From the IMG/VR virus record IMGVR_UViG_3300047160_007578, positions 66,263 to 130,262 of that record: a stretch of DNA of 64,000 nucleotides; one strand, written 5' to 3'. A program made the position numbers and the translations under genes. This document shows positions 1-63,193 of this stretch, in pieces. The notes under the pieces were generated by a model. The model was given only the letters and a program-made list of their open reading frames with translations. It was not told the origin of the DNA and did not search any database. The first letter of the stretch is position 1. Each line of letters begins with the position of its first letter. The stretch comes from a virus.

Positions 1-35
1 CACCAACCGGAGGAATCTCCAGTTTTGATTTTTGA

Positions 36-359
36 TCACGTGACACCATTTTCCTTCCTCCTGTTCCGCCAGTACATCCGCGCGAGCGGCTTGCTGGCCC
101 AGCCTGGGTGATGTGGCGCGTTATGTGCTGATACGCATTGACGAAGCGTACCGTCATAACCCAGGATACACATGAAATGTCCACGACGCCAGATTCGACC
201 CCCGGCAACGTGAGCCGTTGTGAGCGACCACCCGTGCCGTATTAGTCTGCCGAGATTTTTCATTCTTCTCTCCTTGACTTCGGCGTTCCTGGCCAAGATG
301 GCGCATTCACACCGATATCGTTTGCACTTGAAACAGAGCGTTAACATTGAGTGGGTCAT
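36..359 (-). CDS. hypothetical protein
   Basis: 107-aa ORF with GGAGG RBS, co-oriented with the operon. Confidence 0.6.
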   Translation of the reverse strand: MTHSMLTLCFKCKRYRCECAILARNAEVKERRMKNLGRLIRHGWSLTTAHVAGGRIWRRGHFMCILGYDGTLRQCVSAHNAPHHPGWASKPLARMYWRNRRKENGVT

Positions 360-377
360 CGGTTCCCTCCGTAGTTT

Positions 378-917
378 TCACGGACCAACCGGAGCAGGAT
401 TCTCCGGTGTCCCAGGCGCGCTTCCGTACAGCCACTTGCCGGTACGTGCGTGTACTTTGGCTTCGAGAGATCGCATCCTGGCCAAAGCGACCGCTTCTTC
501 CAGGTGCGGATTCGCTTCCTCGCAGCAGAGACAGTACCGAACTGCCTCGCTTTCGGTGAAGCCAGTACGCTCACAGCGCAGGATTTCATCGTCGATGGAC
601 TTCGCGTACACACCATCCAGAGGCGTATCCGGCATGTCACGTCCCGCGATCGCGCGATCAACGCGCCCGCGAACGTTGTCCAGGTACGTTCCTTCCACCG
701 GATTCTTCGAGTCCACCAGCTTGCCGAACACCGTGAGCACGTTTGACCCACGTTCGCGGATATAGCGAGTGCCCACCTGCTGGATTTCCGGCGACGGATA
801 GAAGCTGCGGCGTTGGAAAGCCTTAGCCGCATCTTCAATCGTATCGGTCTCGCACACCGAAATCACGATCGCAAGATCGTTTTTCGAGTGGAGCACGTCA
901 ACGAGTTCAAAGATCAC
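378..917 (-). CDS. hypothetical protein
   Basis: 179-aa ORF, AGGT RBS upstream of GTG. Confidence 0.7.
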   Translation of the reverse strand: MIFELVDVLHSKNDLAIVISVCETDTIEDAAKAFQRRSFYPSPEIQQVGTRYIRERGSNVLTVFGKLVDSKNPVEGTYLDNVRGRVDRAIAGRDMPDTPLDGVYAKSIDDEILRCERTGFTESEAVRYCLCCEEANPHLEEAVALARMRSLEAKVHARTGKWLYGSAPGTPENPAPVGP

Positions 918-959
918 ATTTCACCTACCTTTCTGGCCCAGAGCCATTGGGATTATTGA

Positions 960-1130
960 TCATTCCGGTTCGAGCGAACCGCCGAACCAGCCGAGCACTT
1001 CTTCGACGTTCGCTTCGGATGAACAGTTCCGAATTGCGTCAAGCAATTTCTGCTTGCGCTCTTCCCAGGTGACGACAGGGTCGCCGCCGATCACAGACAG
1101 AGCTTCGGCGGCAGTTTCGTACTGATCCAT
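960..1130 (-). CDS. hypothetical protein
   Basis: AGGGAG RBS before ATG at 1130 (MDQYETAAE...). Confidence 0.65.
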   Translation of the reverse strand: MDQYETAAEALSVIGGDPVVTWEERKQKLLDAIRNCSSEANVEEVLGWFGGSLEPE

Positions 1131-1249: not shown

Positions 1250-1603
1250 AGTGTGAAGAGCCGCTTCGATTTCCACCAGGCGATTCTCAGGGAAGCCACA
1301 GAGTATCGCGAATGGACGCAGATCGCTGGTGTCCATGCTCGGATACTTCTTGCCTTCGCTCCTGGAGAACTCGAACCGTTCGCGAAGATTTTTGATCAGC
1401 CGAGCCAACTTTGGCTCGACTTCGACTTCCTTGCCGGTGTCCTCATCCGTCATGACGAAGACGCCTTGATTGTCCGCTGTGACGAAAGCGCAATCTTGTT
1501 CGTCAGCCGGTTGCATCCAGATTTGGAAGTAGACCGACGTAACATGATCGTAACCGGCGGCGAAGCGGTACTTCTCGCCGTCGAATTCCACCCGAGTGCC
1601 CAT
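1247..1603 (-). CDS. hypothetical protein
   Basis: 118-aa ORF with AAGGA RBS. Confidence 0.7.
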   Translation of the reverse strand: MGTRVEFDGEKYRFAAGYDHVTSVYFQIWMQPADEQDCAFVTADNQGVFVMTDEDTGKEVEVEPKLARLIKNLRERFEFSRSEGKKYPSMDTSDLRPFAILCGFPENRLVEIEAALHT

Positions 1604-1606
1604 GAA

Positions 1607-1771
1607 TCACTTCCTTTCGCCGATTGAGTTGATGGCGTCATCGAACGCCTTATTGTACTCCCGATTTTCCCGCTGTTGGACCGTTCCTTTGTAGCTCTGA
1701 AACAGGCACACTCCGGCGGTCACAAAGACCATGCCGAGAACGATGCAGACAGCACAAAACAGGTCTCTCAC
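1607..1771 (-). CDS. small membrane protein
   Basis: 54-aa ORF missing from the track (VRDLFCAVCIVLGMVFVTAGVCLF...), GGTGG RBS, one hydrophobic segment. Confidence 0.6.
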   Translation of the reverse strand: MRDLFCAVCIVLGMVFVTAGVCLFQSYKGTVQQRENREYNKAFDDAINSIGERK

Positions 1772-1823
1772 GAATCACCACCTTTCATTGTTAGGATCAA
1801 TCCAACTTTCTGATTATTGATCA

Positions 1824-1858
1824 CGCAACCACAATGGTTCTCACGCTCGGGGTGGTTA
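1824..1858 (-). repeat. TIGR-like single unit B
   Basis: Minus strand TAACCA-CCCCGAGC-GTGAGAACCA-TTGTGGTT-GCG, just downstream of a promoter. Confidence 0.7.
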
Positions 1859-1879
1859 TTTGATCATTAATCATTGGCC

Positions 1880-1996
1880 AGATTAATCAAATCTTTCCGA
1901 CGCGCGGCGCGCATCGCTCCGCTACTATAGCTTACCATATTATTTTGCCTATGTCAAGAGGAATTTTTCAGATTGTTGGAAAGATTTGATTAATCT
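1880..1996 (-). promoter_or_regulatory. sigma70-type promoter bracketed by 19-bp inverted repeats
   Basis: TTGACA(1957-1952)-17 nt-TAAGCT(1934-1929) with extended -10 TG; flanks AGATTAATCAAATCTTTCC / GGAAAGATTTGATTAATCT. Confidence 0.85.
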
Positions 1997-2039
1997 CGCC
2001 TTTTGTCCACAAAAAGCTACCTTGCTTTTCGATTATTAA

Positions 2040-2627
2040 TCAATCTCTTCCAAGCTTCTTAAATTGAGCACTAATCGAAGCCAATTGGAAACTGAGATAA
2101 GTGACAGGAGCATCAGCATGGCTGTGTAATAAATTCCAGAGTCGCGGAAAAGTGATCGCAGCACCACCTTCACTAATGAATTCCTTAACATTGTCGTCCG
2201 AATCATCGACAAGAATCTTGTTTGGCCCAGCACAGAAATGTTTCGCGGGACCGATAAGGAACTGTGGAGCGAGTAACGGATAGTGTTTCTGCAACCAGTC
2301 AATTTTACCGGCGACAGATTCACCGACGCGATCCATCGGGAAATCGCCTTTGGATGTTGGCAGTGACGTACAGATACAGATTTCTTTCGGATCAAAGTAG
2401 GCGAGTATCATTTTCACAATATCATCAGCCCAGGGCGTCTTGTGAGCGTTCGCCCAAAAAGCATAATTGCATGGCTTCCACCACGGTTCAGGGATTTCGA
2501 GTCCCACCGAGAATCGCCATTCGCCTTTGACTTTCCATTCGTTCGGGACACCAAAGGCTTCCGCGATTCCACGGTGGATATCAGCCAACACGCCGTCTAA
2601 ATCAAGACAGCATTTGAGCTTAGGCAT
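2040..2627 (-). CDS. HAD-family 5'(3')-deoxyribonucleotidase
   Basis: DLDGVLAD motif I, K, and LVDDS motif IV. Confidence 0.85.
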   Translation of the reverse strand: MPKLKCCLDLDGVLADIHRGIAEAFGVPNEWKVKGEWRFSVGLEIPEPWWKPCNYAFWANAHKTPWADDIVKMILAYFDPKEICICTSLPTSKGDFPMDRVGESVAGKIDWLQKHYPLLAPQFLIGPAKHFCAGPNKILVDDSDDNVKEFISEGGAAITFPRLWNLLHSHADAPVTYLSFQLASISAQFKKLGRD

Positions 2628-2642
2628 CTTTCCTCCTGATCA

Positions 2643-2747
2643 TTAATCATTCTTTCGGTTGATAATCCAATAAGCAAACGCGAATGCAGCCCCGACAATA
2701 AGAAATATAATTAAAACAATATCAAAGGGCTCGAATATTTCTTTCAT
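2643..2747 (-). CDS. small membrane peptide
   Basis: 34-aa ORF MKEIFEPFDIVLIIFLIVGAAFAFAYWIINRKND, ATGA overlap with the upstream stop, GAGGA RBS. Confidence 0.55.
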   Translation of the reverse strand: MKEIFEPFDIVLIIFLIVGAAFAFAYWIINRKND

Positions 2748-3274
2748 AATTCCTCACTAGAGAAAAGTAATTGCCTGAGTAATTCTATTTGTTGATGTAT
2801 CCTGCCGTGCTGCTCGTGCGTGAATCTGTTACAATCTCCCGATAGCTCGTACACACGATTGATAAACTCCGGACTATCGCCGAAAGTATCATACGCCGCG
2901 AAGATCGAAGCACAGTATTGTTCGATATCCATTTCTTCCGGAACATAGTCTGTGGCATAGACTATCACTTTTACCGCGTCGATACCAGCTTCCTCTAGGA
3001 AATGCCTTTTATTTTCTTCGACGTTTTGAACATTAATCACCATATTGTATCGCCTGACCAAAGCCTCTGCTATTTCTCTTTCGGTGATTTTCAACTGAAC
3101 ACCATAGATTGTATTACCATTATTTTCCCCTTCTACTTTCCTGGTATCTTTCAACTGCTCTTTGTGCTTATTTAAGAAATCCTGTAATTCAGCTTCGGAA
3201 TGTGTTTCGATATTAAAAACAGCATAAGAGCAATGGTAAGCCGATTGCTCGTAATCACCCGTTACCCTTAGCAT
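2744..3274 (-). CDS. hypothetical protein
   Basis: 176-aa ORF with AAGGA RBS. Confidence 0.7.
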   Translation of the reverse strand: MLRVTGDYEQSAYHCSYAVFNIETHSEAELQDFLNKHKEQLKDTRKVEGENNGNTIYGVQLKITEREIAEALVRRYNMVINVQNVEENKRHFLEEAGIDAVKVIVYATDYVPEEMDIEQYCASIFAAYDTFGDSPEFINRVYELSGDCNRFTHEQHGRIHQQIELLRQLLFSSEEL

Positions 3275-3527
3275 ATCGTTTCCTTTCCTTTCCTCTTTTC
3301 TCGTTTACGCCTTTCATATGCAGCCACAAAAAGAGTGCGTGTATCCACTGAGACGTATTCGCCATATCGCGCCAGATATCATCGACTTCTTTCGATTCAG
3401 TATCAGTTAACACATCTAGGGCACAATCGTACCATTTGATATTAGTGCCTTCCCCTTTATTCATCTTCGCTTGTGCCGCCTCTTGGCAAAGCTGCCGAAT
3501 GACTTCTTTTTGTCGCGTCATACCCAT
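3255..3527 (-). CDS. hypothetical protein
   Basis: 90-aa ORF with GGAGG RBS. Confidence 0.7.
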   Translation of the reverse strand: MGMTRQKEVIRQLCQEAAQAKMNKGEGTNIKWYDCALDVLTDTESKEVDDIWRDMANTSQWIHALFLWLHMKGVNEKRGKERKRYAKGNG

Positions 3528-3602
3528 CTTCCTCCAGGGTTTAGATACTATAGCATAGTATACTATAGTATCCGAAAATTGAAAAAGATTAATAATCCTG
3601 AA

Positions 3603-4661
3603 TTAAAATTTCCGCTGAACAGGTCGGGTCATATTGAGGAACGTATCAGCATCCTTCTGAGTGTCGAAGGCCATCTGCAATTGATTCGTTAACAGACCGC
3701 AACGCATATCAGATTCCTCTTTCGACAGGTCACGAAAGAAATGGTCGCTGTGAGCGGCTTCCCAAATCCCCTGCGCAAACGTGAACGTCTCATGCTGGAA
3801 GTCGGCACCGACTCGCATCCGATGTTCCGCGATCCGAATATCCGGAAACTCTGACCCGTTGGGCGCGCAGCAGATTTGATCGATGGCCGCGATAAAATCC
3901 TCTCCCACGGAACAGCCGAGCAACCACGCGTACACGGACAGCTGCGTTGCCCAATCAATGTTGGTCTGTTCCAGAAAACCAGCGCCGTTGATTAATGTTC
4001 CGTTGTGCATGAGCAGCCGGCAGTCATCGTGTTTTCCAGCTTTCTTCCGGTCGCGCCTGAGACGCACATAGCCCGGCATCGGCGAGACGGGTGTGCGTGA
4101 GAGATAGCCGTTGACCTTGAAATCGAGAATGACGTGCGAGCCGAACTTGTTGATGTAGAACACGTCAGGTTTGCCCAGGAAAGTTACACCGCCCCGGACC
4201 ATCGTTTTCGCTTCGCGCTCGGTTCCCGTTTCGCCCGGTCGGCCCGGATCACCTTGCTTCGCTCGGTCGCTGTGAACCGCGCCCATGACTTCGATTTCAA
4301 ACTGTGGAATATTAATCGCTTGATTGAGTTCGAGCATCAGATCAGCCAGCGCTCCGGATTTCTCGTAGATATCGAAAAGGTACATGCCGTGCAGTCGCGC
4401 CCAGTCACGCCATTCCTGGGAAACTTGAGCCTCGAAGATATTGTCGAAAGCATACTTCGGGTCGTGGCCCTTGCCGAAGAGTTTCTCGTGAACGTAGTTC
4501 TTGACGTATGCATCGAACGAACTTCCGATTGCCATTGGTTGCGTCTGCGGTTCGCGAACCCTATCGATTGGTGCCAAATAGTCCAGGTAGAATTGTTCCG
4601 GATTCTTTCGGTACGTACTGATTCCGGTCGGACTCAGATAACGCAGGGTCTTGTTCTTCAA
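3603..4661 (-). CDS. PD-(D/E)XK (RecB/Cas4-like) exonuclease
   Basis: N-terminal LSPT..ST, GKPD, ILDFK and QLSVY motifs. Confidence 0.8.
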   Translation of the reverse strand: MKNKTLRYLSPTGISTYRKNPEQFYLDYLAPIDRVREPQTQPMAIGSSFDAYVKNYVHEKLFGKGHDPKYAFDNIFEAQVSQEWRDWARLHGMYLFDIYEKSGALADLMLELNQAINIPQFEIEVMGAVHSDRAKQGDPGRPGETGTEREAKTMVRGGVTFLGKPDVFYINKFGSHVILDFKVNGYLSRTPVSPMPGYVRLRRDRKKAGKHDDCRLLMHNGTLINGAGFLEQTNIDWATQLSVYAWLLGCSVGEDFIAAIDQICCAPNGSEFPDIRIAEHRMRVGADFQHETFTFAQGIWEAAHSDHFFRDLSKEESDMRCGLLTNQLQMAFDTQKDADTFLNMTRPVQRKF

Positions 4662-4879: not shown

Positions 4880-5677
4880 TCACGGTTGCAATTTCATTCC
4901 ACTTACTTCGGTGAGCCCATCGACTTCTTCGACCTTCGCGTCGCAGAAGATTGATGGGAATTTGTTCACGCAGATATTGTAGACCTGACTGTAAACGTAT
5001 CGAATCTCCCACTCCGAATGTCGCGACGTTCGCATCTGCATCGTGTGACGGAGCGAACGGAGATTGAGAGAAAAGCCGATTTCATTGCTCTGGCCATTCG
5101 GCAGGAATCGACGCAGAGCAGAGGTTATCTTTTTCTTTTTATTGAAGTCGAGACTCTTATCATTGAGGCCCATCTTGGCGACCATCTTCCGATAATATTC
5201 TTCGATGATTCGTAGGAGTTCCTCTCCCTCTTCCCGGACAGGTTCGAGAATTGGATCAAAAATCAAATCAATGGTCTCGCCCCGGACGTAGCGGCCGCTG
5301 GTCTGAGAGAACGCCGTGCCGACGCGATGCCTGACGAGTTCGTGCGTAAAGACGCGTGAACAGTTCCGGACAACGAAGTTCAGTTGAGTATGCTCGAAAA
5401 CCGAACCGTGACCGGAATCAAAGCAACTCTTAAGATTGGCTGGAATATCTCGGATTTTGGTAACATTGTCATTTTTGCCGAGTGTCAGGCTAGCGTAGCA
5501 CAGCTTCGCATAGAAGCTGCACAACACTTCACCTGGGTGTAAGCCCTGCTCGATTGCGGATTCAACCGAGCCTATGAAGTTCATGTTACCGGAATCTTTC
5601 AGGTACTCACGAAACGCTTGCCATTCGATTCCGGTGTAGCCGATGAGATATACCTGCGGTTTGACGAACTGACCCAT
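4880..5677 (-). CDS. thyX: flavin-dependent thymidylate synthase
   Basis: GHGSVFEH and THELVRHR...SQTSGRY ThyX signature. Confidence 0.95.
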   Translation of the reverse strand: MGQFVKPQVYLIGYTGIEWQAFREYLKDSGNMNFIGSVESAIEQGLHPGEVLCSFYAKLCYASLTLGKNDNVTKIRDIPANLKSCFDSGHGSVFEHTQLNFVVRNCSRVFTHELVRHRVGTAFSQTSGRYVRGETIDLIFDPILEPVREEGEELLRIIEEYYRKMVAKMGLNDKSLDFNKKKKITSALRRFLPNGQSNEIGFSLNLRSLRHTMQMRTSRHSEWEIRYVYSQVYNICVNKFPSIFCDAKVEEVDGLTEVSGMKLQP

Positions 5678-6216: not shown

Positions 6217-6251
6217 CCTTCGTCTCCCAGCCGGTTACAATTAATAATCAA

Positions 6252-6321
6252 TGGAACTGGCTGGACTCGAACCAGCAACTCGGCGCATGCACTCCGTGTG
6301 ATACCGTTTCACCACAGCCCC
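6252..6321 (-). tRNA. tRNA-like gene with Ala identity (G3:U70, A73) and an aberrant anticodon arm
   Basis: Acceptor GGGGCTG/CAGTTCC, D arm GTGA/TCAC with GG, T arm GCTGG-TTCGAGT-CCAGC; 16-nt anticodon arm containing TGC; no CCA encoded. Confidence 0.75.
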
Positions 6322-6408
6322 ACCAACTCAGGTTTTCCTTCTCCTCTTTCTGGCTCCCGCGAACTGACTAAATTCGACATGCCCAGCGGTCGCGGGCGTT
6401 TCGGGCCT

Positions 6409-7327: not shown

Positions 7328-8104
7328 TTATTCAGGTTCTTGGATCGAGTTCGCGTCGTCTATTAGCTTTTCAAATGGAAGTGTCGATCGTTGCTTGCCC
7401 TTGACTTTTGATCTGGAAAAACGACGCGAATGATTAATGATCCCTTTATCAGTTTTCTTGTATCGGTCGTAAAGATCACCGAGCAGTTTAATAACATAGT
7501 TCGGCTTGATTTCCAATATATCAGCAACCTCATTTGGAGTATATCCTGCGGACTTCAGACGCACAATCGCTCGCTTGTATTCGCGACGCACAAGATTATC
7601 GTCAGCCTTGATACAAGTTTCGATTGTTTCCAAAATCTCCAATATACTAGATTCGTGATCTTCCAATCGAGCCTGGTAGTCACCGAGAAAATCAAGTAAA
7701 GGTGAAATGAAGTCCGGATCATGAGCCTTCTTATGCCGATATGTGCGAGCCGGCATAAGATGCTGACTTTCGATGTAATCGATAATTGCACCTTTCATGA
7801 TCGTTGAAAGGTACGGCGTGATATTGTCATCAACCAGAACGGTTGGTGCTCGTTTAATACCCTGTGCAAGAGCTAGCATAGCTTCTTGCACAGCATCTGA
7901 AATGATATGTCTAGCTGTGAATCCGATACGACAGGCCAACGCGATCGCTAACCGCATATGGCCAAAGAAAATCGTTTCGATATCTTTCCGCGTAGCGGTA
8001 TTGTTTCTGAGTTTTTGGACGAGTTCGATCAGTTCCGTTTCCGGCAAAGGATCAGGTATAATGAACGGAGTATAGGGATTATCTACACCGCGTCCTCGTC
8101 GCAT
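7328..8104 (-). CDS. sigma-70 family RNA polymerase sigma factor
   Basis: Region 2-like HMRLAIALA...DAVQEAMLAL...YL...KGAIIDY and region 4 HTH GYTPNEVADILEI. Confidence 0.75.
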   Translation of the reverse strand: MRRGRGVDNPYTPFIIPDPLPETELIELVQKLRNNTATRKDIETIFFGHMRLAIALACRIGFTARHIISDAVQEAMLALAQGIKRAPTVLVDDNITPYLSTIMKGAIIDYIESQHLMPARTYRHKKAHDPDFISPLLDFLGDYQARLEDHESSILEILETIETCIKADDNLVRREYKRAIVRLKSAGYTPNEVADILEIKPNYVIKLLGDLYDRYKKTDKGIINHSRRFSRSKVKGKQRSTLPFEKLIDDANSIQEPE

Positions 8105-9562: not shown

Positions 9563-10037
9563 TTTCTTCCTCCTTTCTTCGCTTCGCCAATCGCGTCTTG
9601 ATATCGCGGCGCTTGGCTTCAAAGTAGCCAGCGCTCCCATAGATTGATCCGAAGCGTTTGGTGCAGACTTCGTTCCAGGCATCGAGCAGACTGCGAGCCA
9701 TCAGAACTTTGCCACGGACCTTGATCGCAGTCAAATCGATTCCAAGATCAATTGCAGTGGCCGCAACCAATCGCCGGCACGCTTGACGCTCTTTGTGTGG
9801 CCGAACTCGCGGTGATCGAAGTCCGGCCAATGTTTGAGCCAGCCGAATCATGTCTTCGATTTCTTCTTCATATTCCATCCGTTCCGGTTCCAGCTTCTCG
9901 TTGGCCAAGAAGCTGGCCCAAAGATCAATATCAGAAACAACCTTGACCTTTTGAGTTTGCATCGCTTTATTAAGCTCGCGGCGTTCATCGAACACTCGCT
10001 TTAGTTCAGCCAAATCAGCTTCGGGTCCGAGTTCCAT
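9552..10037 (-). CDS. hypothetical helical protein
   Basis: 161-aa ORF, start context AGGATTATTAATCATG. Confidence 0.7.
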   Translation of the reverse strand: MELGPEADLAELKRVFDERRELNKAMQTQKVKVVSDIDLWASFLANEKLEPERMEYEEEIEDMIRLAQTLAGLRSPRVRPHKERQACRRLVAATAIDLGIDLTAIKVRGKVLMARSLLDAWNEVCTKRFGSIYGSAGYFEAKRRDIKTRLAKRRKEEENAS

Positions 10038-10060
10038 GATTAATAATCCTTTCCGCTGGT

Positions 10061-14156: not shown

Positions 14157-14220
14157 ACGAATCCCTCCCGCGGAATTATTGCGACCAGACCGACGATAAT
14201 AATCAATAACTGATTAATAA

Positions 14221-14592
14221 TCAATGGCCTCGCGTATGTGACGACTTATTAAGGAAATGGAACCAGTTCGGAGGAAGAAATAGCTTATCATATTCGTGCT
14301 GATCAGCGTAACAGAGTATCCAAATACCGACACCCTTAGATTGCATCATCGGAAATACTTGGAGTTGAGCCGGAGTAAAACTGTATTGCTCAGGATTTTT
14401 CACTTCGATCCATCGCGTACCGAAAGAAAAATGAGCGCAGTATAAATCCGGTAATCCCATCTGGAATTCATTGCCGTGTGTTGGAATCACCAACCATTCG
14501 CGATCTTCCAGAAACCGTTTAAGATCAGTCTGTATTTTGTGTTCCGGTCCGCCTTTCTTGAAACTCTTGACGGTGCCGAATCTTGCTCCCAT
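14221..14592 (-). CDS. VRR-NUC domain nuclease
   Basis: E..IQ, GLPDL, WIEVK and T.AQ motifs. Confidence 0.85.
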   Translation of the reverse strand: MGARFGTVKSFKKGGPEHKIQTDLKRFLEDREWLVIPTHGNEFQMGLPDLYCAHFSFGTRWIEVKNPEQYSFTPAQLQVFPMMQSKGVGIWILCYADQHEYDKLFLPPNWFHFLNKSSHTRGH

Positions 14593-19810: not shown

Positions 19811-20683
19811 TCACATCTTGTGAACCGCCATCAAATCAAGTACCTCAACTGGTGGACTGTATCTCAAGTGATTTTCTTTCGCGTATTCAACCAGATCGCG
19901 GTACAGATCAAGGTCACTGATTTCGCCGTTCGCCCATGCCAGAGCACGGGTTGCCAGATTCCCCTGTCCCATTTCTTCAATGATATGATCGATCATCTGG
20001 AAGATTTCTTCCGGATTCCGACGCTTCCGTTGCGTTGGCTTGGACTTCTTCTTCTTGATCACCGGAAGTCGTGTCTCGTTCCGAAGCTTCGCTTCCTTGA
20101 TGGCCTTTGCCATCGTCATCTGTTCCGACGGGTCTTTGATTTCAGAAAGATCATAAATCTGTCCCTGCGTCAAGAAGCCTGCCGCGGCTGCCTCTTGGAT
20201 CGGTTCAGCCATCGAGAGCAAACCCATACGGATGACGACCCACTTCTTGCCTTGTCCAGTGAGCCTAGCAATTTCGCCGATAGTGGCACCGAGTTTAATA
20301 AAACGATCGATACCGTGAGCTTCCTGCAATATATTCAAATCCTGTCGTTGGATGTTCTCAACGAAATTGAGACCGAGAGCTTGAATCTCTGTCAAGCCCT
20401 CTCGAAGAATCGTGGGGATTGTTTCGCGCTCGAGATACTCGTAAGCCGCGTATCGTCTGTGACCTACCACAACCTTGTATTTGTAGCCCGGAATATCGAA
20501 CGGACGAACCGTGATCGGTTGAAGTAAACCCTGTGCCTCAATATCTTTTGCAAGCTCAACGATGCTTGCCGGATTAATCTCTCCGCGAATATTGAATTCC
20601 GGATCGGAAAAGATATCGGAAAGTAGAAAATGTTCTACCTTCATATCCTTTTCATTTTCAGGAATGGCCACTGCGACGTTCAT
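19811..20683 (-). CDS. ParB/Spo0J-like protein (CTPase domain plus HTH)
   Basis: ELAKDIEAQGLLQPITVR, GHRR, ENIQRQDL, followed by an HTH. Confidence 0.9.
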   Translation of the reverse strand: MNVAVAIPENEKDMKVEHFLLSDIFSDPEFNIRGEINPASIVELAKDIEAQGLLQPITVRPFDIPGYKYKVVVGHRRYAAYEYLERETIPTILREGLTEIQALGLNFVENIQRQDLNILQEAHGIDRFIKLGATIGEIARLTGQGKKWVVIRMGLLSMAEPIQEAAAAGFLTQGQIYDLSEIKDPSEQMTMAKAIKEAKLRNETRLPVIKKKKSKPTQRKRRNPEEIFQMIDHIIEEMGQGNLATRALAWANGEISDLDLYRDLVEYAKENHLRYSPPVEVLDLMAVHKM

Positions 20684-21609: not shown

Positions 21610-21863
21610 TATTTTGGCCCTCCGTTCTTTACCATTTCAATCGTATCAATGCCGAACGCGGCTTTCATGAATCGACTCGCGGCACGATTGGCGGCGACAC
21701 GCTCCATGCCTTCGTCAACAGAACACATCGCGATATTGCAGTGCCACGACCACGCATAGGCGGGATCATCGGCGAACACTTTGCTGAGCACCGCAAGAGC
21801 TTCTTTCGGAGTGTTCATTTTAATAGATTCCTGATCAATAATCATTCCGGAAAATTGAGACAC
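21609..21863 (-). CDS. hypothetical phage protein
   Basis: DPAYAWSWHCNIAM conserved-looking motif. Confidence 0.65.
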   Translation of the reverse strand: MSQFSGMIIDQESIKMNTPKEALAVLSKVFADDPAYAWSWHCNIAMCSVDEGMERVAANRAASRFMKAAFGIDTIEMVKNGGPK

Positions 21864-22330
21864 GCAAACTCGCCAAAATATTTCTTTGCCGCCCTGTCGT
21901 AAGCTCTCGCTGCTTCCTCTTCAGTATTAAAGGAACCCAGATATTTTGACTTACCGTTAAGTCGAATCTGAGCACACCATGTTCCACTTTTCTTGTAGTA
22001 ATGAACACCTTTATAATCGCTATATTTCTTTCTACTTTGTGCTCTTCGATTTTGACAAGTATGAGCAGTTGTAGCTTCTCTCAGATTTTCTCGCGTACAG
22101 TTAAAAGGCTGTTGATCTTTATGATCAATATCTTTTTCTTTTGACAATCTCATTCTGTTCGCGATAAATCGGTGCAGATACTGCTTTCGATATTTTCCAT
22201 CAATTTTTATATCGCGAAAAGCATAACCTTTACCATTACTGTGCCAAAGAAAAGCCTTAACAGCTACTTCGTCTTCAACACTAACATAATGAAAATCATC
22301 ACCTGTTACAGAAATACGAGCAACAGTCAT
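21842..22330 (-). CDS. HNH-AP2 homing endonuclease
   Basis: LHRFI, IDHKD...N.RENLR, and AP2 domain YKGV...W.AQI...YLGSF.TEEEAARAYD. Confidence 0.9.
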   Translation of the reverse strand: MTVARISVTGDDFHYVSVEDEVAVKAFLWHSNGKGYAFRDIKIDGKYRKQYLHRFIANRMRLSKEKDIDHKDQQPFNCTRENLREATTAHTCQNRRAQSRKKYSDYKGVHYYKKSGTWCAQIRLNGKSKYLGSFNTEEEAARAYDRAAKKYFGEFACLNFPE

Positions 22331-27362: not shown

Positions 27363-27420
27363 GATCTGTACTCTCTTTCGTTGAAAATCGGTAGAGTGAA
27401 AGACATCCTGCCAGTTGATC

Positions 27421-28227: not shown

Positions 28228-28393
28228 GTTTTGGTCCTTTCTGTTGAGTTCAATATTATTTCACCGTATTGTGTTTAATCATATCCGATATTGTGATCTT
28301 TAATCAATTCTCGCCGTGGCCACCTGCCAACCATTAACTACCCAGCCAACAGGTGGCCACGAGCGATTATCAAGGTCAACAGCGGACTTGTCG

Positions 28394-29515: not shown

Positions 29516-29700
29516 TGATACGTACTCCCTGATAAATGATCCGGTGGACTCGACATAACTACGCCGTCAGGTCGTGTTTCACCATACATGCGCCTCTTTC
29601 CGTTCTCAATCATTTCGATTATTGATCACGTCTACCAATTCGATTATTAATCAGATATTATTGTTCGCCCCACCGAATCATCAACGATTAATAATCCCCA

Positions 29701-30089
29701 GCGATTAATAATCACGGAACCGACTCAGAACCCAACGTGGGTAGGGGGCTACTCCGGAGGGAGCACAGAGTCGGTCCCGTGATTATTAATCGCGGACCGG
29801 TCAGGGTCAGCTACGTGTGGTAGACTTACGACCCTGAAACCGGTCCAGCGATTAATAAACACCTAAGCGATTAATAATCAGCCGAGTGGACTTGGCACAT
29901 GCGTTCCCGTCCAACCATCGTGCGGTCCACTCGGCTGCCCCTTTGATCAGCCGAGTCTTTCGAGTCCGTGGCTCTGCGTACGTCACAGGCACAATCAACT
30001 CGGCTGAATGCCAAAAAGATTTTTAATCAGTCGAGGGCGACCGTGAGGACTTGACAGGAGGCGGTCAACCACTCGACTGATTAAAAATC
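29701..30089 (-). ncRNA. cluster of five bulged RNA hairpins in the leader of the ParB-like gene
   Basis: Stems at 29701-29793, 29794-29846, 29878-29937, 29947-30007, 30018-30089; plus-strand A.C mismatches become G.U pairs on the minus strand. Confidence 0.6.
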
Positions 30090-35634: not shown

Positions 35635-35654
35635 TAATCAGGAAAGGAAAACCA

Positions 35655-36233: not shown

Positions 36234-36248
36234 CATGAAAGGAGCCTC

Positions 36249-37546: not shown

Positions 37547-40459
37547 TTAAAAATCACCACCACCAGTATCTGCTGGAGGCGCGAGCCAGAATGGAGACGG
37601 TGTTAACGTATATTTGACACCAATAGCACCGCCTAAGACAGTGGTAGTACCACTGGCACCGAAAATCATTTGTCGAATTACAGTACAAGTACAACTTTCA
37701 GGTAATGCGGCATCCGGTGACATACCTGAAACAATAGCATTGACAGTAGCGGTTGATGGTTGATCATAACCATCTTCGTAGAGATCAACAGTGTATGTAT
37801 TATCATCATTCGCAGCAGTTATTATACCAGGAATAGGTCTCGACGGTGCGCCAAGATCAGTGTCTGTTGATGGAGTCGGCGTTGGTTCACGAAAGACATA
37901 ATTGTATGCTGGTTGAACAATTGCACCCTGAGCCGGTGTTTGACCTGTGGGTCCACCCGGAGGCGCTCCATCATACCACGGATAATTAGGCATTTCTGCT
38001 ATTGCTGGTGGTGTAGGATTTGCTGGCGGATTACCTTGATCCGAAATGGAACTACCACCACCTTGTACACTCCACACTGGCGTGACTGGATTCGTTCCTG
38101 CTTTAGCATTCAAATCAACTTGCGGTAATTGCACAAAGACACCAGGCACTTCGTTTATGTCAGGGAAGACATAAGTCGTTGAGATACCTGCCGGGCGTGC
38201 CAGCGGATATTCCTTCATTTCTCCCAATCTCACTGGCAGCCAAATGTCTAAGTCTATTGACAAATCAGCTGAATTAAAAGTTGCCTTTCTAGTTGACCCG
38301 ACAACAGGACCAATACAGGCGTAATTATGGGCAAGATTAATAGTCACATCATCGAAAGTCTCAACTGTGAGCTTCTGAAGAAATGTCTTACACTTGAGAA
38401 CCTTCCAAATGTTACTGTATATCATTGTCCAGTATTGTGCAGATTTCCAAACATAATCCAGAATATTGTAGATGTAAAAATCATAGCTTCGCTTAACGAC
38501 ACCATATAAAGCAACATTATTCTGGCAACAGATTTCAGTCTTATCAGTCAACGCCCAGGACGTTTGAAACAGAGCAACAAACTTTGTTACGATTTCTTCA
38601 AATGGTGTACATTCTATTTGGAGCGTAGCTACTTCAATATCATCCTCAGTAATAGTGTCAACAGGTGTTAATTGTTCAGGTAAGTATCTTATATACCATG
38701 TATCGTTTGTGACCCACACCGCACACCGAGCTTGCCAAGCGATTTCTTTTAATACTGTGACCACATTCTTCTTGTCATAGAACGGAAAGCTTGACGGATA
38801 CTTTTCAACCATGATACGGACATGATTAAAACTCGTCCAATCAATTTTATATGCTGTATAATTTTGGATGAACCAAACTAAAATATCAACAGTATTCGGT
38901 CCAATTGGAGAAATAACAGTGGCATACACATCGTTTGACCAGTGCTGATCCCAAATCGTTGAGAGCGGTTGATTAAAAGTCGCAATCAATGCCGTGACAC
39001 TACCGAAGGACATATAGCTCAATTCGTAATAGTACGGCGGTATCGGTGTGATCAGCTCCAAACCACTGTCTCGATCCTTTGCTGACAACCAAAGAACCTG
39101 AACATTCGGAACAATCGTGATAATATATCGAATCGAATAATCAACACCTGGTTCGACAGTTGCCCCAGCTTGAGCAAACCAGAATTTTTGCCTATTACTC
39201 ATTCCTTGTGTATTTGCAGGTGCAACAGGAGCAGTATTAATTGTAAAAAAGTAGGGTGGTTGGCATGACCAATAAGCTGTCGCTTCTGATTGTGCTGTTG
39301 GATTAAGGTCGCCAACGATCTTAAAACCGGGGCCACCTTTGGCAGCAACAGTTGAATCAAATTGCTCTTGCGTTCCTTGAACAGGAGAACCAAATCTACT
39401 TGGAAGACTTGGAGCTAATCCACCGCCAGGAGCACGGTGAAAGTCTTCATTAGGCGACATTCTTGAAATCACATTGAAAACATCACCAGAGAATGAACCG
39501 TAGTAACTTGCTCCATTGATTTTAATTTCCATAGGAGTACCTTGATGAAAGCGATGACCATTGATAATCGGAATTGAATAAAGATCATAAATCTTTTGAT
39601 CCTGTTGTATCGCCTTCAATCTATTAATTTGTGGATAATGATTTGCATTAGCTTGTGACTGCATTGACAAAGCTTGATTTTCTAACGCCTTACCTTTTGC
39701 CATTAGGGCAGCATCAGGCGTAAGTGCGGCTCCAAAACCAATTGACGAACCACCACTCATCGCAATCCACATCATTTCAGCTGCGCGTAAAGACAAGCAA
39801 GAAGCACGTCCAGATTGAGCATCAGCCTTATCTTGAAGATAATCAATTTGAGCGCCGAGATTTGCGTCTGGAATACCAAGAGGTACTCTAGTTGTACCAA
39901 CAGGAATCTCATCCATTTGAATGGTCGGCATATCGTGAACCGTGCCAAATACCAATGGCCACGGCTTATTCAAAATAATCGGTGGTACATTGGTGAAATT
40001 ACCATCTTCTACTGTGAATCCGACTTGCACATCATCAATCTTCGTTACCACATCAAACGAAAACGACCTATCGCCTTCACTCCAGACGATAGGCGCAGCA
40101 ACGACGCCCTCGAAGATTGGAAAAGCGTCACCAACTGGAATCTGTGTAAACCACTGATAAATGATCACTCGACGACCATACAGAGGGTGGGTATCAAAAA
40201 GATTTTTAATCATCCCATCAGTATCATCCAATACGACCTTAACGCTAGTCGTGGAACCACCTTTGGAAATATCGAGTACAGCTTCAAGATCAGCAACTTC
40301 TATCAGTTTGCCCATAACAACACCTGGAATATATCGATCACAATAGCTATAGAAGTTACCTTTATAAATCCATTGAATCGAAATGATATTAACTGGCTCT
40401 AAGCCAGTTTTGTTGGCGAGCAATGTGTTGAGAGTTTCAGGGGGAATACGCCTCGGCAT
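37547..40459 (-). CDS. tail tip / baseplate hub-like protein
   Basis: 970 aa, downstream of tape measure, KPWPLVFG motif. Confidence 0.7.
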   Translation of the reverse strand: MPRRIPPETLNTLLANKTGLEPVNIISIQWIYKGNFYSYCDRYIPGVVMGKLIEVADLEAVLDISKGGSTTSVKVVLDDTDGMIKNLFDTHPLYGRRVIIYQWFTQIPVGDAFPIFEGVVAAPIVWSEGDRSFSFDVVTKIDDVQVGFTVEDGNFTNVPPIILNKPWPLVFGTVHDMPTIQMDEIPVGTTRVPLGIPDANLGAQIDYLQDKADAQSGRASCLSLRAAEMMWIAMSGGSSIGFGAALTPDAALMAKGKALENQALSMQSQANANHYPQINRLKAIQQDQKIYDLYSIPIINGHRFHQGTPMEIKINGASYYGSFSGDVFNVISRMSPNEDFHRAPGGGLAPSLPSRFGSPVQGTQEQFDSTVAAKGGPGFKIVGDLNPTAQSEATAYWSCQPPYFFTINTAPVAPANTQGMSNRQKFWFAQAGATVEPGVDYSIRYIITIVPNVQVLWLSAKDRDSGLELITPIPPYYYELSYMSFGSVTALIATFNQPLSTIWDQHWSNDVYATVISPIGPNTVDILVWFIQNYTAYKIDWTSFNHVRIMVEKYPSSFPFYDKKNVVTVLKEIAWQARCAVWVTNDTWYIRYLPEQLTPVDTITEDDIEVATLQIECTPFEEIVTKFVALFQTSWALTDKTEICCQNNVALYGVVKRSYDFYIYNILDYVWKSAQYWTMIYSNIWKVLKCKTFLQKLTVETFDDVTINLAHNYACIGPVVGSTRKATFNSADLSIDLDIWLPVRLGEMKEYPLARPAGISTTYVFPDINEVPGVFVQLPQVDLNAKAGTNPVTPVWSVQGGGSSISDQGNPPANPTPPAIAEMPNYPWYDGAPPGGPTGQTPAQGAIVQPAYNYVFREPTPTPSTDTDLGAPSRPIPGIITAANDDNTYTVDLYEDGYDQPSTATVNAIVSGMSPDAALPESCTCTVIRQMIFGASGTTTVLGGAIGVKYTLTPSPFWLAPPADTGGGDF

Positions 40460-49471: not shown

Positions 49472-50074
49472 TTATCTTATTGGCCGATGTACTAATGACC
49501 GCTGTATTACCTCAGTTAATGTTTCGGTAAAAGCCAAAGCCTCAAGAGTCTTTTGATCCCAAGGCTCGGTCGTAACTTCATTAAATATCAACGAGTCACT
49601 GGCAGTCAGATCAAAGAACTCATTCCTCACACCGCCCTTGACAAATCGAGCAGTAATCAAATGTCCAAGCATTCCCTCAAGGGTTGATATCTTCTGAATA
49701 TTGTATCGTTGATTATTAATCAATTCAATGATATAGTCTTCTGCCGTGGCAGTGATATCAATGTTCTTGGGAATATCAGCACCGTCCAGTATTATGTATC
49801 GTGTATCAACAAGCGTCGGTGGACTTGGCATACCGGATGATGCGTTATCAACACGCCGATAGCCGCCCAACAAATTCATTTCCAGACTCAATGCCACCGG
49901 CATAACAATTGCACGATTGATTCGGAACTTTTGTTTGTTGACAATATTCTTCCCTGTACCGGCATCGCTTTGGGTGGAAAGGACATGGTACCAGTCCGCT
50001 GGCGTGCCGTACCGTCTTTTCAGATTGTAGAGCACTCTTTTGGTAAAGAGTAACGGACCTGGTAATACTGGCAT
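49472..50074 (-). CDS. head-closure-like protein
   Basis: Size and synteny after the capsid gene. Confidence 0.5.
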   Translation of the reverse strand: MPVLPGPLLFTKRVLYNLKRRYGTPADWYHVLSTQSDAGTGKNIVNKQKFRINRAIVMPVALSLEMNLLGGYRRVDNASSGMPSPPTLVDTRYIILDGADIPKNIDITATAEDYIIELINNQRYNIQKISTLEGMLGHLITARFVKGGVRNEFFDLTASDSLIFNEVTTEPWDQKTLEALAFTETLTEVIQRSLVHRPIR

Positions 50075-50130
50075 TTCACACCCTTTGATTATTAATCACC
50101 AAGTATCAAACACAACTATTATTAATCAGA

Positions 50131-50157
50131 CTGAGCCGGGCAAGAATGCCCGGCTCA
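50131..50157 (-). terminator. hairpin after the capsid gene
   Basis: TGAGCCGGGCA / TGCCCGGCTCA. Confidence 0.6.
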
Positions 50158-50169
50158 ATCGAGAGTCGA

Positions 50170-51573
50170 TCAACCGATGAGGACACCGCCGAGGCGAGTG
50201 TCGAGAACCGCGACGCCGGCGAGGAAGTCGCACGTGACCAAATGGCCCTGGTTGAGCCCTTGGTAGGTGATGACGACACGCATCGACAGATTGTTCCAGT
50301 TCGCGACAGCCGCGACTGCACCAGTACCCGGACGCGGGAGAGCCAGCGGTCGAACCACAAGTGCGATCGCATTCCGGTGGAACGCGAAGTTGTAGTTGGC
50401 TGCCGGACCGAGCAGAACTGCTGCGCTGTTTGCGACGGCCGCATCGAGCGGACGATCGAGCGTGATGCCGACAAGACCGTCAACCGCGACGACGGTGTAT
50501 TGCGGACCCGCAACGTTGCCGAAAGTCACCATCTGGCCGATATTGGGAGCCACCGTGAAACCGCTGACGGTGATTTCCTTCGTCCAGCCAGCCGCGTAAC
50601 CACCGGTGTTGTTGATGGTGCCGGCCGCAGCAGTCGTAACTGCTCCACCGCTGGCTACTGCTGAAGCCAAAGGCGGAGTAAAGGTGATGCTGGTGGTATT
50701 GCCGAGCGTTTCGGTGTGAGACACGACAGTGTGCGGAATACCCTCGGTACCAACCATGATCCACGCGCCGGTCGTAACCGCTCCGGTGAAACCGGTAGTC
50801 GTAATCGTTGTCGCACCGGCAGCCGCGTTTGCTCCCGTCGTGCCCGCCAACTGCGTGTTGCCCGTCGGGATCACCGGCATGTTCTGGTCCATCCAGAAGT
50901 CCCATCCGAGCTTGCGACCGAGCGTGGCGTTTCGCAACGCCTCGCCGAAGTCGCCGACCATCTGAGCCTGGGTGAAGATATCCAGGTTCAGCAGGGTCGT
51001 TTCGGTGACAGAGTTGAGAACCAGATTCCGACCCGCGACCGGGCAACGGTTCTGATTAAAAATCTGTCGAAGGGCCAGGATGAATCCCTTGGCGTTGGTG
51101 GATGTGATGCCGAAGGCGGCGCCTGCGGAATTGGCGAGGAACTGGACATACTGACCAAGCACGATCTGGTCGACGAAACGCGCCTGTGCGATGATCGCCG
51201 GACGCAGGAACTCATCGACGAGAGACTTGAAGGACTTCGATTCCTCGCCGTCACGGATGAGGAAGCTGGTATGGATGTGCTGGTTCAGAGTGACCGGCAC
51301 GTCCGCGGCCGACACGTCCTGGATGACGACGTTATCGGTCACGTCCTTGCGTTGTGCCTGGAGTTCGTGCGGGCGCGCGACGTGAACCGTATCACCGTAG
51401 CGGGCGAGCACGTTCTCGAAATCCCGAAAGACGAGATTACCGGCGACCATGTTCTCGACCAGGATCGCGAGCGACTCATTGGCCCACAATTCCGGAATGA
51501 ACACGTCCACGGTGTTCGCGTAGACCGGCCGGAAACCACGGATCAGCCGGTTTGTCTTGTTGAAGCGAAGCAT
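50170..51573 (-). CDS. major capsid protein (P22 coat-like HK97 fold with insertion domains)
   Basis: FIPELWA, GDTVHV, LGRKLGWDF and AFHRNAIALV.RPL. Confidence 0.9.
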   Translation of the reverse strand: MLRFNKTNRLIRGFRPVYANTVDVFIPELWANESLAILVENMVAGNLVFRDFENVLARYGDTVHVARPHELQAQRKDVTDNVVIQDVSAADVPVTLNQHIHTSFLIRDGEESKSFKSLVDEFLRPAIIAQARFVDQIVLGQYVQFLANSAGAAFGITSTNAKGFILALRQIFNQNRCPVAGRNLVLNSVTETTLLNLDIFTQAQMVGDFGEALRNATLGRKLGWDFWMDQNMPVIPTGNTQLAGTTGANAAAGATTITTTGFTGAVTTGAWIMVGTEGIPHTVVSHTETLGNTTSITFTPPLASAVASGGAVTTAAAGTINNTGGYAAGWTKEITVSGFTVAPNIGQMVTFGNVAGPQYTVVAVDGLVGITLDRPLDAAVANSAAVLLGPAANYNFAFHRNAIALVVRPLALPRPGTGAVAAVANWNNLSMRVVITYQGLNQGHLVTCDFLAGVAVLDTRLGGVLIG

Positions 51574-61188: not shown

Positions 61189-61211
61189 AGTAACCTCCTA
61201 TTGTTTTCTGA

Positions 61212-61520
61212 TTAATAATCATCCTTGGTGACAGGAGCGTCTCCAATCGAAGCCTTAGTATGCTCAGGATTGGGCTTCAGTGGAACTGACTTTGGGACGT
61301 ACTTTTCAACGTCCTTGGCCGTAAGTCCAAGTTCCTTCAAGCGGGACGATGACGCGTCAGCGAGAACTTCCCAATTCTTGGGGTCGAGTTCCTTTGCCCC
61401 TTTGGCATTGAATTTAACGCCACAGCCGCACACGCAGCAAGCGTGTGGAACAGTGTTATCCCCTGCGTATTCACCCCTGTGCAGGTGTCCGCAGTTCATA
61501 CATCGGAAAGCAACAGCCAT
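61212..61520 (-). CDS. zinc-ribbon protein
   Basis: CMNCGH...PHACCVCG. Confidence 0.7.
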   Translation of the reverse strand: MAVAFRCMNCGHLHRGEYAGDNTVPHACCVCGCGVKFNAKGAKELDPKNWEVLADASSSRLKELGLTAKDVEKYVPKSVPLKPNPEHTKASIGDAPVTKDDY

Positions 61521-61529
61521 GACAGTCTC

Positions 61530-63104
61530 CTAGATTATTCTTACACCAGTAAATTCAAGATCGACTTCGTATCTTTCGCCTTCATTCAAAAATAGTGACC
61601 GAGCCGTGAATGTGACTGGATTATTCGTTATCATGATCTTCCAAATTTCTCCCCGCCAATTTTGCATATCTATTACATTAGCGATATTGTCAGCTAAAAA
61701 TGTTTCCAATCTCAGAGCCATTGGTCGTCCAATGACAAATCGATACATTAGTTTTTGTAGACTATTCTTCTTTGCATATGTGTACAATACATTAGTCATT
61801 GATCGTTTCGGTATATGTCGTTGTTGATAATCTTCGGTATCACCAAACTCAGGTGTAGGTAATACAATCGACTGACCAGTTGCCGGCGCCGCTAATGATA
61901 CAAATTGACACGTTCTCGTTGACACTAGAGAGTAGAACACTTCGGGAAGTGATATTACAGTGGTGCCGATATTAGATGGACGGAATGAGCCACCAATAAG
62001 ATTGAGATTTTCCGAAATATTCCGAACATAATGATTATTAATCGTTGCCAACGTTTCAGTTAATTGTAACTGTTCTTGGATACTATTGTTTCTGATCTTT
62101 GTTAATGACCGTGTTTCAAGGAATGCGACATGCTCATTTACATTCCTGGGTCTAAAATGTTCCATTGTAATGGTTTCAACAAGATGAATGCTCCAATCAT
62201 CGGTAATAGGCAAATAGAAAATCTCTTCAACAATACCACTTGCCGCCATCCGTATCGGCTGTAAAATACCATTACCTCGACCTTTATGATCAAAGGTCGC
62301 ATAAGCTTTCATACCTGTTGCGCCTACTGTGGCATGACCAACACCGATATGACTATGAGTATTACCAAATGCGGCAAGAACTATTCGCTTTAGTGTACCG
62401 GAAGCCGCACCACCAGGAAGGGCGTTTGCAAACGCTTGAACTCTAGAAAGTGTAGCGTTACCGACTCCAACCATCGCATGTGTAGCAACAGCTGCGGCTC
62501 GTATCCTTTGAAGACTAGATGAGCCACGACCTTCACCGTTATCTCCGCTACCACTTGCTGTTATTCTCTTGAGAATCGCAGCGCCGGTACCATTTTTTAC
62601 TTTATGTCCAGAACCACTAGCTGTTATCCTTTTAAGAGTCGCAGCACCATGACCGGTTCTAGCAAATCCACCAACACCAGCTGCTCTAATTTTGGAAAGA
62701 GTACCAGCACCGATACCACTCTCAACAAAAGCGAAACCTGTAATTCTTTGGAGTGTTGCCGCTCCAGTACCTATCACTGCAAGTGCAGCAGACGCACTGG
62801 CAGTAATTCTTTGAAGATTAGGATTACCATACGCGGCACCAGTAGAACCGTGGGCACTTGCCGTGATTCTGGAGAGTGAAGCAGCACCAGTACCCGTAAC
62901 AGTTATTGCACCAGTACCAGTGGTAACAATTATTGCTTGAAGAGTACCCGCACCATAACCATGTCGTACTGTTGTACCGCTACCAGATGCTGTGATTTGT
63001 CCAAGTGTTGCTGCACCAAGACCAGCACTGGTAGAAGCACCATGACCAAGGACAATATTACCAAGATAACTATCGCTTGTACCTAGCTGTCCGGTAAAAG
63101 CCAT
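61530..63104 (-). CDS. repeat-containing virion protein
   Basis: G.G.A.L.RITASG repeats and a C domain highly similar to 53437-56784. Confidence 0.75.
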   Translation of the reverse strand: MAFTGQLGTSDSYLGNIVLGHGASTSAGLGAATLGQITASGSGTTVRHGYGAGTLQAIIVTTGTGAITVTGTGAASLSRITASAHGSTGAAYGNPNLQRITASASAALAVIGTGAATLQRITGFAFVESGIGAGTLSKIRAAGVGGFARTGHGAATLKRITASGSGHKVKNGTGAAILKRITASGSGDNGEGRGSSSLQRIRAAAVATHAMVGVGNATLSRVQAFANALPGGAASGTLKRIVLAAFGNTHSHIGVGHATVGATGMKAYATFDHKGRGNGILQPIRMAASGIVEEIFYLPITDDWSIHLVETITMEHFRPRNVNEHVAFLETRSLTKIRNNSIQEQLQLTETLATINNHYVRNISENLNLIGGSFRPSNIGTTVISLPEVFYSLVSTRTCQFVSLAAPATGQSIVLPTPEFGDTEDYQQRHIPKRSMTNVLYTYAKKNSLQKLMYRFVIGRPMALRLETFLADNIANVIDMQNWRGEIWKIMITNNPVTFTARSLFLNEGERYEVDLEFTGVRII

Positions 63105-63193
63105 ATTTATTCCCTTTCGTTACTTTTACTCCTTTCCTGATTATTGATCAAGATTCCTATTATCATCCGATAACTATTAGCAGCCAGTGATTA

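Follow-up and report, generated by a model that had tools for sequence, protein, structure and literature searches.

The genome of an uncultured soil phage in the IMG/VR virus record IMGVR_UViG_3300047160_007578 is marked from end to end by a short palindrome, GATYWWWRATC, which occurs 216 times in the whole record of 130,262 bp, or about once per 600 bp. The analysis centres on a stretch of 64,000 bp, the right half of this single record (positions 66,263 to 130,262), which is called the window below. Coordinates are those of the window unless another genome is named; the full record, with a completeness estimated at 88%, is labelled G000. The copies of the palindrome are maintained by selection, and related phages carry words of their own of the same general type. 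We consider the chance about even that the copies are parS- or operator-like loading sites for an orphan ParB-family protein encoded at 28394-29515; a second ParB, a primase or another protein could also be the reader.

Abundance, spacing and selection of the palindrome

A sequence-only reading of the window had put the number of copies at about 90, with about one expected by chance. Exact matching gives 98 copies between 27 and 63149, among them all ten positions that had been offered as examples, against a mean of 1.06 and a maximum of 4 in 100 dinucleotide-preserving shuffles, none of which reached 98. The motif is the core of a longer word, TGATTAWTAATCA, and extension into the flanks gives the consensus T-GATTAWTAATC-A, where 52 of the 98 window sites have T at -1 and 47 have A at +1. 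Besides the perfect site in Table 1, copies of TGATTAWTAATCA without mismatch lie at 30493, 37226, 49710, 50086, 52710 and 61209. GAT-N5-ATC occurs 129 times in the window, and the remaining spacings from 0 to 11 give 7-48 occurrences. GAT-N4-ATC itself is found just 7 times, versus 18-53 for neighbouring spacings and the reverse arrangement, a scarcity that may reflect avoidance of a restriction site. In an unbiased list of the over-represented 8- to 11-mers of the genome, words of the motif form the top family and dominate the list, which otherwise contains only a GA repeat and a repeat of guide-array-like units. Words of TGGTTCTCAC type, with 16 copies, are among the most over-represented in G000 and fit guide-array-like dual repeats.

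The copies are spaced more evenly than random placement would give. Over the whole record, the coefficient of variation of site spacing is 0.75, compared with 0.99 when sites are placed uniformly at random (none of 2000 simulations was as even) and with 1.225 +/- 0.095 when the null takes account of the preference for non-coding over coding DNA (none of 3000). As much as 98.7% of the genome lies no more than 1 kb from a site, and the even spacing suggests selection for full coverage. The interval 29617-30089, already named as the densest part in the sequence-only reading, holds 8 sites. It lies directly upstream of the ParB-family gene, in the divergent intergenic region that separates this gene from a rightward primase block.

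Gene junctions are strongly favoured as locations. Based on a self-trained gene model with 208 genes, the 216 sites are sorted into 78 inside coding sequences (CDS; 36%), 36 overlapping a stop codon, 7 overlapping a start codon, 8 abutting a start and 87 otherwise intergenic. For the 98 window sites, the same model gives 47 inside CDS, 15 overlapping the upstream stop codon, 2 overlapping a start, 5 abutting a start and 29 otherwise intergenic. Site density is 5.5 per kb where a site touches non-coding DNA versus 0.77 per kb within coding DNA, a 7-fold difference, and 104 of the 207 gene junctions carry a site. The earlier statement that sites often lie between ribosome-binding site and start codon was an overstatement, as this layout does occur but at only 5 of the 98 window sites (Table 1).

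Sites inside genes are in excess as well. The codon-preserving shuffle that had been proposed as a check was run on a crude gene model of 87 window open reading frames (ORFs) of 60 amino acids or more, with 300 shuffles of each kind. There are 52 intragenic window sites without contact to a stop codon, compared with 0.62 (largest 5) for shuffled codon order and 5.95 (largest 12) for shuffled synonymous codons. This excess indicates that the word is selected at the nucleotide level and has shaped proteins too. By reading frame, 13 of these sites fall in frame 1 and 39 in frame 2; frame 0 has none, because most variants would create stop codons there. The peptides that such sites had been said to impose, IINR and RLII, were both found, the former as xIINR.

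Comparison with L019, a 19-kb viral contig with 86% nucleotide identity to the phage over 14 kb, allows conservation to be assessed site by site. The homologous stretch contains 29 phage sites, of which 21 stand at the same alignment column in L019 and 19 are identical in all 11 bases. Background identity is 28.8% for all 11-column windows and 31.8% for AT-rich windows, and 19 of 29 sites then correspond to a binomial P of 4.6e-5. In several cases, a site lost from one sequence has a newly gained counterpart a few bases away in the other. Purifying selection acts on the sites, and they turn over between close relatives. The cluster is retained in L019 with extra copies at 17-bp spacing: at alignment columns ~9946-9997 (window ~29686-29713) there are four copies at this spacing versus two in the phage, which suggests that the cluster has grown by slippage. 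Contigs of four soil runs across 27000-36900 show strain differences and assembly breaks in the site cluster, and carry no information on function.

The two arms of the palindrome behave as independent half-sites. At the Y/R pairs of positions 4 and 8, the 216 sites comprise 117 T/A, 86 mixed and 13 C/G, which corresponds to independence with T near 0.74. Watson-Crick pairing at the inner and flanking variable positions is no higher than independence in five motif sets from four genomes (G000, G001, G002 and G003). Outside full sites, GATTA occurs 277 times versus 280 expected, so that isolated half-sites are at background, and near-cognate words are not depleted but exceed background (95 matches versus 2.05 expected; ~12 decayed sites in a tally by eye). 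Together, independent half-sites, background isolated half-sites and undepleted near-cognates argue against an RNA or DNA hairpin and against repair-driven bias. The hairpin reading was rejected because the arms show no Watson-Crick covariation, and the biased-repair reading because near-cognate words are above background. The signal fits a duplex site that is read by two equivalent protein subunits. The sites are not promoters either, since they lack both an orientation and a constant distance to start codons, and a sigma-70-type promoter scan stays at background (21 versus 16.3).

Palindromes of related phages

The phage has no close relative in the named phage collection, where nucleotide and DNA-polymerase protein searches gave no match and the capsid protein gave matches below 60% identity only. 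A scan of viral contigs with the DNA polymerase found no relative; with the capsid protein, contigs encoding proteins 44-62% identical were found. The closest of these capsid relatives carry GATY-N3-RATC with a less AT-rich centre, in 15, 21 and 9 copies in 10-17 kb and in 21 copies in L005, versus 0-10 copies for other spacings. In L005, seven motif copies at 1480-3691 follow a period of ~370 bp and are not independent, because they lie within an apparent tandem coding-domain repeat.

A larger set of relatives comprises 80 viral loci that encode an orthologue of the ParB gene at 28394-29515. Dereplication at 95% protein identity leaves 51 stretches, the phage included, and GAT-Nn-ATC (n = 5, 6 or 7) is enriched at p<1e-6 in 23 of them, with 6 more borderline. 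The word itself differs among the relatives, which use GATT-N3, GATT-N4, GATT-N5, GATG-N4 (one clade, monophyletic), GATC-N4 or TGAT-N6. For example, the complete 112-kb genome G002 contains GATT-N5-AATC 74 times and GATT-N4-AATC 42 times (6.9 expected each), 116 sites together, and the 73-kb G003 contains TGTTA-N4-TAACA, whose core GTTA-N4-TAAC occurs 23 times versus 3.0 expected. From this variety, the hyper-abundance of TGAT...ATCA is a recurrent and fast-evolving trait of the phage clade. G002 (L033-L038) has in addition a second palindrome, TATGT-N8-ACATA, 33 times versus 0.22 expected, as well as GCTT-N5-AAGC 35 times; these may represent a second site family or a repeated element.

The original proposal that the copies are binding sites for a phage protein thus has indirect support from half-site independence, from isolated half-sites at background, from purifying selection and turnover, from even spacing and from the variants of the relatives. 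The identity of the reader and the purpose of the sites are what we infer in the following.

The orphan ParB and other candidate readers

A six-frame scan of the genome with ParB_N (PF02195) finds exactly two places, the gene at 28394-29515 (g173) and a second, canonical parB gene at 19811-20683 (g157; Table 1). In g173, Pfam does not call HTH_ParB. A family profile of 27 homologues matches Spo0J (1vz0, residues 23-188), ParB (6t1f), Noc (7ol9) and KorB (8qa8) across the N-terminal and helix-turn-helix (HTH) domains, with E values from 4.7e-22 (Spo0J 1vz0) to 1e-12, and most of the listed homologues carry precomputed PF17762. An AlphaFold2 model with a mean confidence (pLDDT) of 82.4 contains a long C-terminal helix and retrieves ParB, Noc and KorB in Foldseek (E 3e-11 to 1e-8, ~200 columns aligned). 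The protein has a ParB fold with N-terminal domain and HTH, and residues G99, R102 and N134 are invariant across the 27 homologues. No ParA was found: PF13614 and PF01656 had no match in the 130-kb record, at its estimated 88% completeness, and scored 14/14 in control genomes. PF00589 and PF00239, searched for an integrase, had no match.

Table 1. Positions of representative sites and of the genes discussed as readers, in window coordinates.
Feature	Coordinates	Strand	Remarks
Perfect 13-bp TGATTAWTAATCA site	14211..14223	.	0 mismatches
Densest cluster of sites	29617..30089	.	8 copies in 473 bp; richest 600-bp window genome-wide
Site between Shine-Dalgarno and start, GGATTATTAATC then ATG	10038..10048	minus-strand gene	Same layout at 10262, 10559, 14961, 40460
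Orphan ParB-family gene g173, 373 aa	28394..29515	-	Pfam ParB_N PF02195, E 1e-13, 51.6 bits versus cut-off 26.3
Second, canonical ParB gene g157, 290 aa	19811..20683	-	Pfam ParB_N + HTH_ParB; GHRR, ENIQR motifs
Primase/helicase gene g176, 952 aa	30777..33635	+	PHROG DNA primase; Pfam DUF5906; other side of the site-rich intergenic region

The position of the sites among relatives points to the orphan gene. In 31 motif-bearing loci (not dereplicated), the variant proper to each locus peaks upstream of the ParB orthologue, with 27 sites in -200..0 and 36 in -600..-400, versus ~0.2 sites per locus per 200-bp bin elsewhere. When sites within -250..+50 of inferred starts are counted per gene family in 34 dereplicated loci, orthologues of the 28394-29515 ParB have 26 sites versus 10.3 expected (2.5-fold), orthologues of the canonical ParB have 8 versus 8.5 expected, and other well-sampled families reach 0-1.7-fold, with the exception of the primase discussed below. 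Both ParB-like proteins had been named as candidates in the sequence-only reading; this pile-up favours the one at 28394-29515 and not the one at 19811-20683. Among 19 loci without genome-wide enrichment, at least 9 keep TGATT-type palindromes 26-111 bp upstream of the ParB orthologue, and two more keep one of GTTA type. In several relatives, GATTCGNGAGAATC recurs within the CDS of the ParB orthologue at a conserved IRENP motif, ~+26 from the residue-36 codon; this palindrome, of GATT-N6-AATC form, may follow from the conserved amino acids.

Several observations weigh against the orphan ParB as reader. Twenty-two stretches of the 50 relatives encode the orthologue yet give p>1e-3 for enrichment over ~10-21 kb each, and the ParB protein alone therefore does not entail genome-wide sites. 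N6 and N7 often occur in the same genome, and two spacings coexist in several genomes, which is unusual for a rigid dimer; the independently tethered DNA-binding domains of a ParB could tolerate such variation. The cytidine triphosphate (CTP)-binding motifs have diverged in g173, with GLQR for GERR and ANAQK for ENLQR. The predicted recognition helix does vary with motif class (for example, the GATG-N4-CATC clade has WI(A/G)GRLS), but this link follows the protein tree and, being confounded by shared ancestry, adds no independent evidence. On the other side of the intergenic region the pile-up is no weaker: orthologues of the divergently transcribed primase have 35 sites versus 10.3 expected (3.4-fold). 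A region shared in this way could serve as an origin or as operator for a different protein. In G002, no copy lies near the ParB orthologue; the closest is ~780 bp upstream. Furthermore, no gene within +/-10 kb cleanly splits the 13 motif-bearing from the 15 motif-free full-flank loci. Both ParBs, the primase and a helicase are present in essentially all loci of either group, and the few other genes that differ (uncorrected p 0.006-0.044) are attributed to synteny. Gene-content association was consequently dropped as a pointer to the reader, as no candidate emerged from it.

If the orphan ParB is the reader, a dimeric phage-encoded DNA-binding protein would dock genome-wide at the palindrome, each HTH of the dimer reading one TGATY half-site. 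The ancestral sites may have been local to the intergenic region before the parB gene, and the word would then have multiplied genome-wide in some lineages, to ~1 per 600 bp in this one. If it behaves like ParB, Noc and KorB, the protein would load at the sites and, provided that it still binds CTP, would close into a clamp and slide; on the model of KorB, clamps from each site would then populate the neighbouring DNA. This would yield an assembly of ParB and DNA by which the phage DNA is marked and organised or regulated, as opposed to a ParA-driven partition system, and whose purpose could be organisation, self-marking, shielding or silencing. A more speculative extension, which we hold to be less likely than not, is that a clade of large, apparently virulent soil phages writes a private ParB loading word at intervals of ~600 bp across the genome and, with an orphan ParB, forms a self-specific nucleoprotein coat or condensate, which would gather phage DNA apart from that of the host and shield it or time its expression. 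This would be a ParA-free kind of self-marking in which word and reader co-evolve quickly.

The canonical ParB at 19811-20683 is an unlikely reader in its place, with sites that would work in the same way. It combines ParB_N and HTH_ParB with intact CTP motifs, its orthologues are present in G002, G003 and G005 and in 13/13 motif-bearing full-flank loci, and its recognition helix likewise differs between motif classes. The window also holds no canonical parS that could be its private site: the best match to the 16-bp sequence (TGTTNCACGTGNAACA) has 2 mismatches, with 7 matches at <=3 mismatches versus 3.05 expected, and a search for a private palindrome near its gene returned nothing convincing. 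The gene is nevertheless found in 14/15 motif-free full-flank loci too, and sites are at expectation before its orthologues, as described above.

To the same low degree of probability, the reader may be another phage protein, either the primase/helicase at 30777-33635 as an origin-binding initiator or an unrecognised small regulator with a global operator network. The strongest pile-up of all precedes primase orthologues, and the cluster occupies the kind of divergent intergenic region in which origins and early promoters are usually found; the region is a possible origin of replication. The phage encodes a sigma-like protein at 7328-8104, and most small ORFs have no family match, which leaves room for a hidden small regulator. 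However, 216 initiator sites would titrate the initiator or make many origins, and the sites, which lack orientation, a fixed start-codon distance and promoter signal, are not promoters. In G003, moreover, the intergenic region is only ~360 bp long, too short to hold a further gene, and still has a site.

A host protein, such as a nucleoid-associated protein or a global regulator that the phage would recruit or titrate by collecting sites, is a good deal less probable. The AT-rich word presumably resembles operator-type palindromes, and the core gene content near ParB shows no consistent difference between motif-bearing and motif-free relatives, as expected if the host differs. The variant, on the other hand, tracks the phage ParB tree, as in the monophyletic GATG clade, and even relatives that lack the genome-wide spread have copies at a conserved position next to a phage gene for a DNA-binding protein.

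The earlier alternative of a modification signal has lost support, and we now regard it as very improbable that a DNA-modifying or restriction-related enzyme, for example the N6/N4 methylase of the phage, acts on the word. This PF01555 protein (G000 38091-38981, outside the window) is the only clear methylase, the genome has a weak second methyltransferase-like match, and about a quarter of the half-sites contain GATC. PF01555 is nonetheless absent from the records of all five relatives searched, including the complete G002 with its 116 sites, and modification targets are not normally multiplied 100-fold or evenly spaced. A ThyX thymidylate synthase (4880-5677, minus strand) and a dUTPase/dCTP-deaminase-like protein (G000 49646-50200) suggest ordinary thymidine metabolism; taken with the methylase, they point to nucleotide metabolism and to an orphan methylase in a phage for which the integrase searches gave no match. 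Because phage ParBs can activate DNA-modifying enzymes (PMC13229309), a ParB-activated thymine dioxygenase was also considered. It was rejected, as no dioxygenase is among the ~70 proteins scanned (part of the ORFs) and the ParBs that activate such enzymes have no DNA-binding domain.

Least credible of all is a hairpin signal at gene junctions, or a by-product of biased repair of the kind suspected for HIP1: about half of the junctions carry a copy and some copies separate a Shine-Dalgarno sequence from its start codon, but beyond the missing covariation and the abundant near-cognates, C/A mismatches are about as common as G/T wobbles (hand tally of window variants, gene orientation left aside), a 4-bp AT stem would be very weak, a palindrome serves both strands equally, and more than a third of the sites are inside genes.

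Other genes of the phage were noted in passing. The 258-aa protein at 7328-8104 (minus strand) matches Sigma70 region 2 (E 3.4e-6), has a 28%-identical counterpart in G002 and is probably a phage sigma factor. An HNH and AP2-domain protein at 21842-22330 (minus strand), whose counterpart in G002 lies at a non-syntenic place, is probably a homing endonuclease. ARAGORN reports a tRNA-like gene at 6251-6322 (minus strand) with a two-base anticodon that the program left undetermined. A 417-aa gene outside the window (G000 27948-29201, plus strand) was considered as ParB-like and rejected, since Pfam gives it a weak zinc ribbon only and the six-frame PF02195 scan did not return it.

Significance and comparison with known systems

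No description of genome-wide ParB-type palindromes in phages was found in the literature, supplementary site lists aside. If the orphan ParB does read them, the sites would be the densest known array of ParB-type sites, ~100 times denser than that of Noc, in a phage in which no ParA was found, and the uses of the ParB clamp, at centromeres and some operators, would come to include the marking of whole genomes by viruses. Since the sites constrain proteins and gene junctions over 130 kb, their cost implies a strong benefit. The clade would also provide many natural protein/site pairs, with half-site and N5, N6 and N7 spacing variants, for the study of how ParB specificity evolves, and purified proteins with short duplexes would suffice to test the system directly.

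Among the known systems, Noc and its binding sites (NBS) on the Bacillus subtilis chromosome have these features in common with the phage: a ParB-family protein without a ParA partner and a short palindrome that is scattered over the replicon rather than placed at one centromere. The fold match to Noc structures is strong as well (7ol9, 7nfu and 7ng0). Noc has roughly 70 sites on 4.2 Mb. The phage, in contrast, has 216 sites on 0.13 Mb, which is ~100 times denser; its replicon is that of a phage without an integrase found, and its word is unrelated to NBS.

KorB of plasmid RK2, a ParB-family CTPase clamp, has as its loading site a 13-bp palindrome with copies dispersed over a mobile element; it slides by as much as 1.5 kb and acts as a repressor of promoters (PMC11790492). 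The KorB operator (OB) and the phage word are both of 6-1-6 form, TTTAGC-S-GCTAAA versus TGATTA-W-TAATCA, and the fold of the phage ParB matches the KorB structures 8qa8 and 8qa9. On RK2 there are roughly a dozen OB sites, together with a ParA homologue and KorA, which locks the clamp, whereas the phage has hundreds of sites, many of them inside genes, and no ParA was found in it.

Chromosomal and plasmid partition systems of the ParABS type resemble the phage in the ParB_N and HTH fold and in palindromic sites that adjoin the parB gene. They differ in that the phage has hundreds of sites and not a few, with neither ParA nor a canonical parS found. In addition, neither of its ParBs, read by eye, has a ParA-binding peptide of LG(K/R)GL type, a motif taken from PMC12704722.

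Outside the ParB family, the stoperators of Cluster A mycobacteriophages, bound by the L5-type repressor, are dozens of 13-bp copies spread genome-wide, mostly within the short gaps between genes, with a single phage protein as their reader (PMC9283540). The likeness lies in a 13-bp word that is repeated across a phage genome. Stoperators are asymmetric, read by a monomer and orientation-dependent, and they belong to temperate phages; the phage word, by contrast, is palindromic and without orientation, stands inside genes in 36% of cases, and occurs in a genome in which no integrase was found. HIP1 (GCGATCGC) of cyanobacteria is a hyper-abundant short palindrome with about one copy per gene, inside genes too (PMC5861425). 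HIP1 is however a feature of cellular genomes with no known reader, whereas the phage word differs even among closely related viruses and has its anchor next to a gene for a DNA-binding protein.

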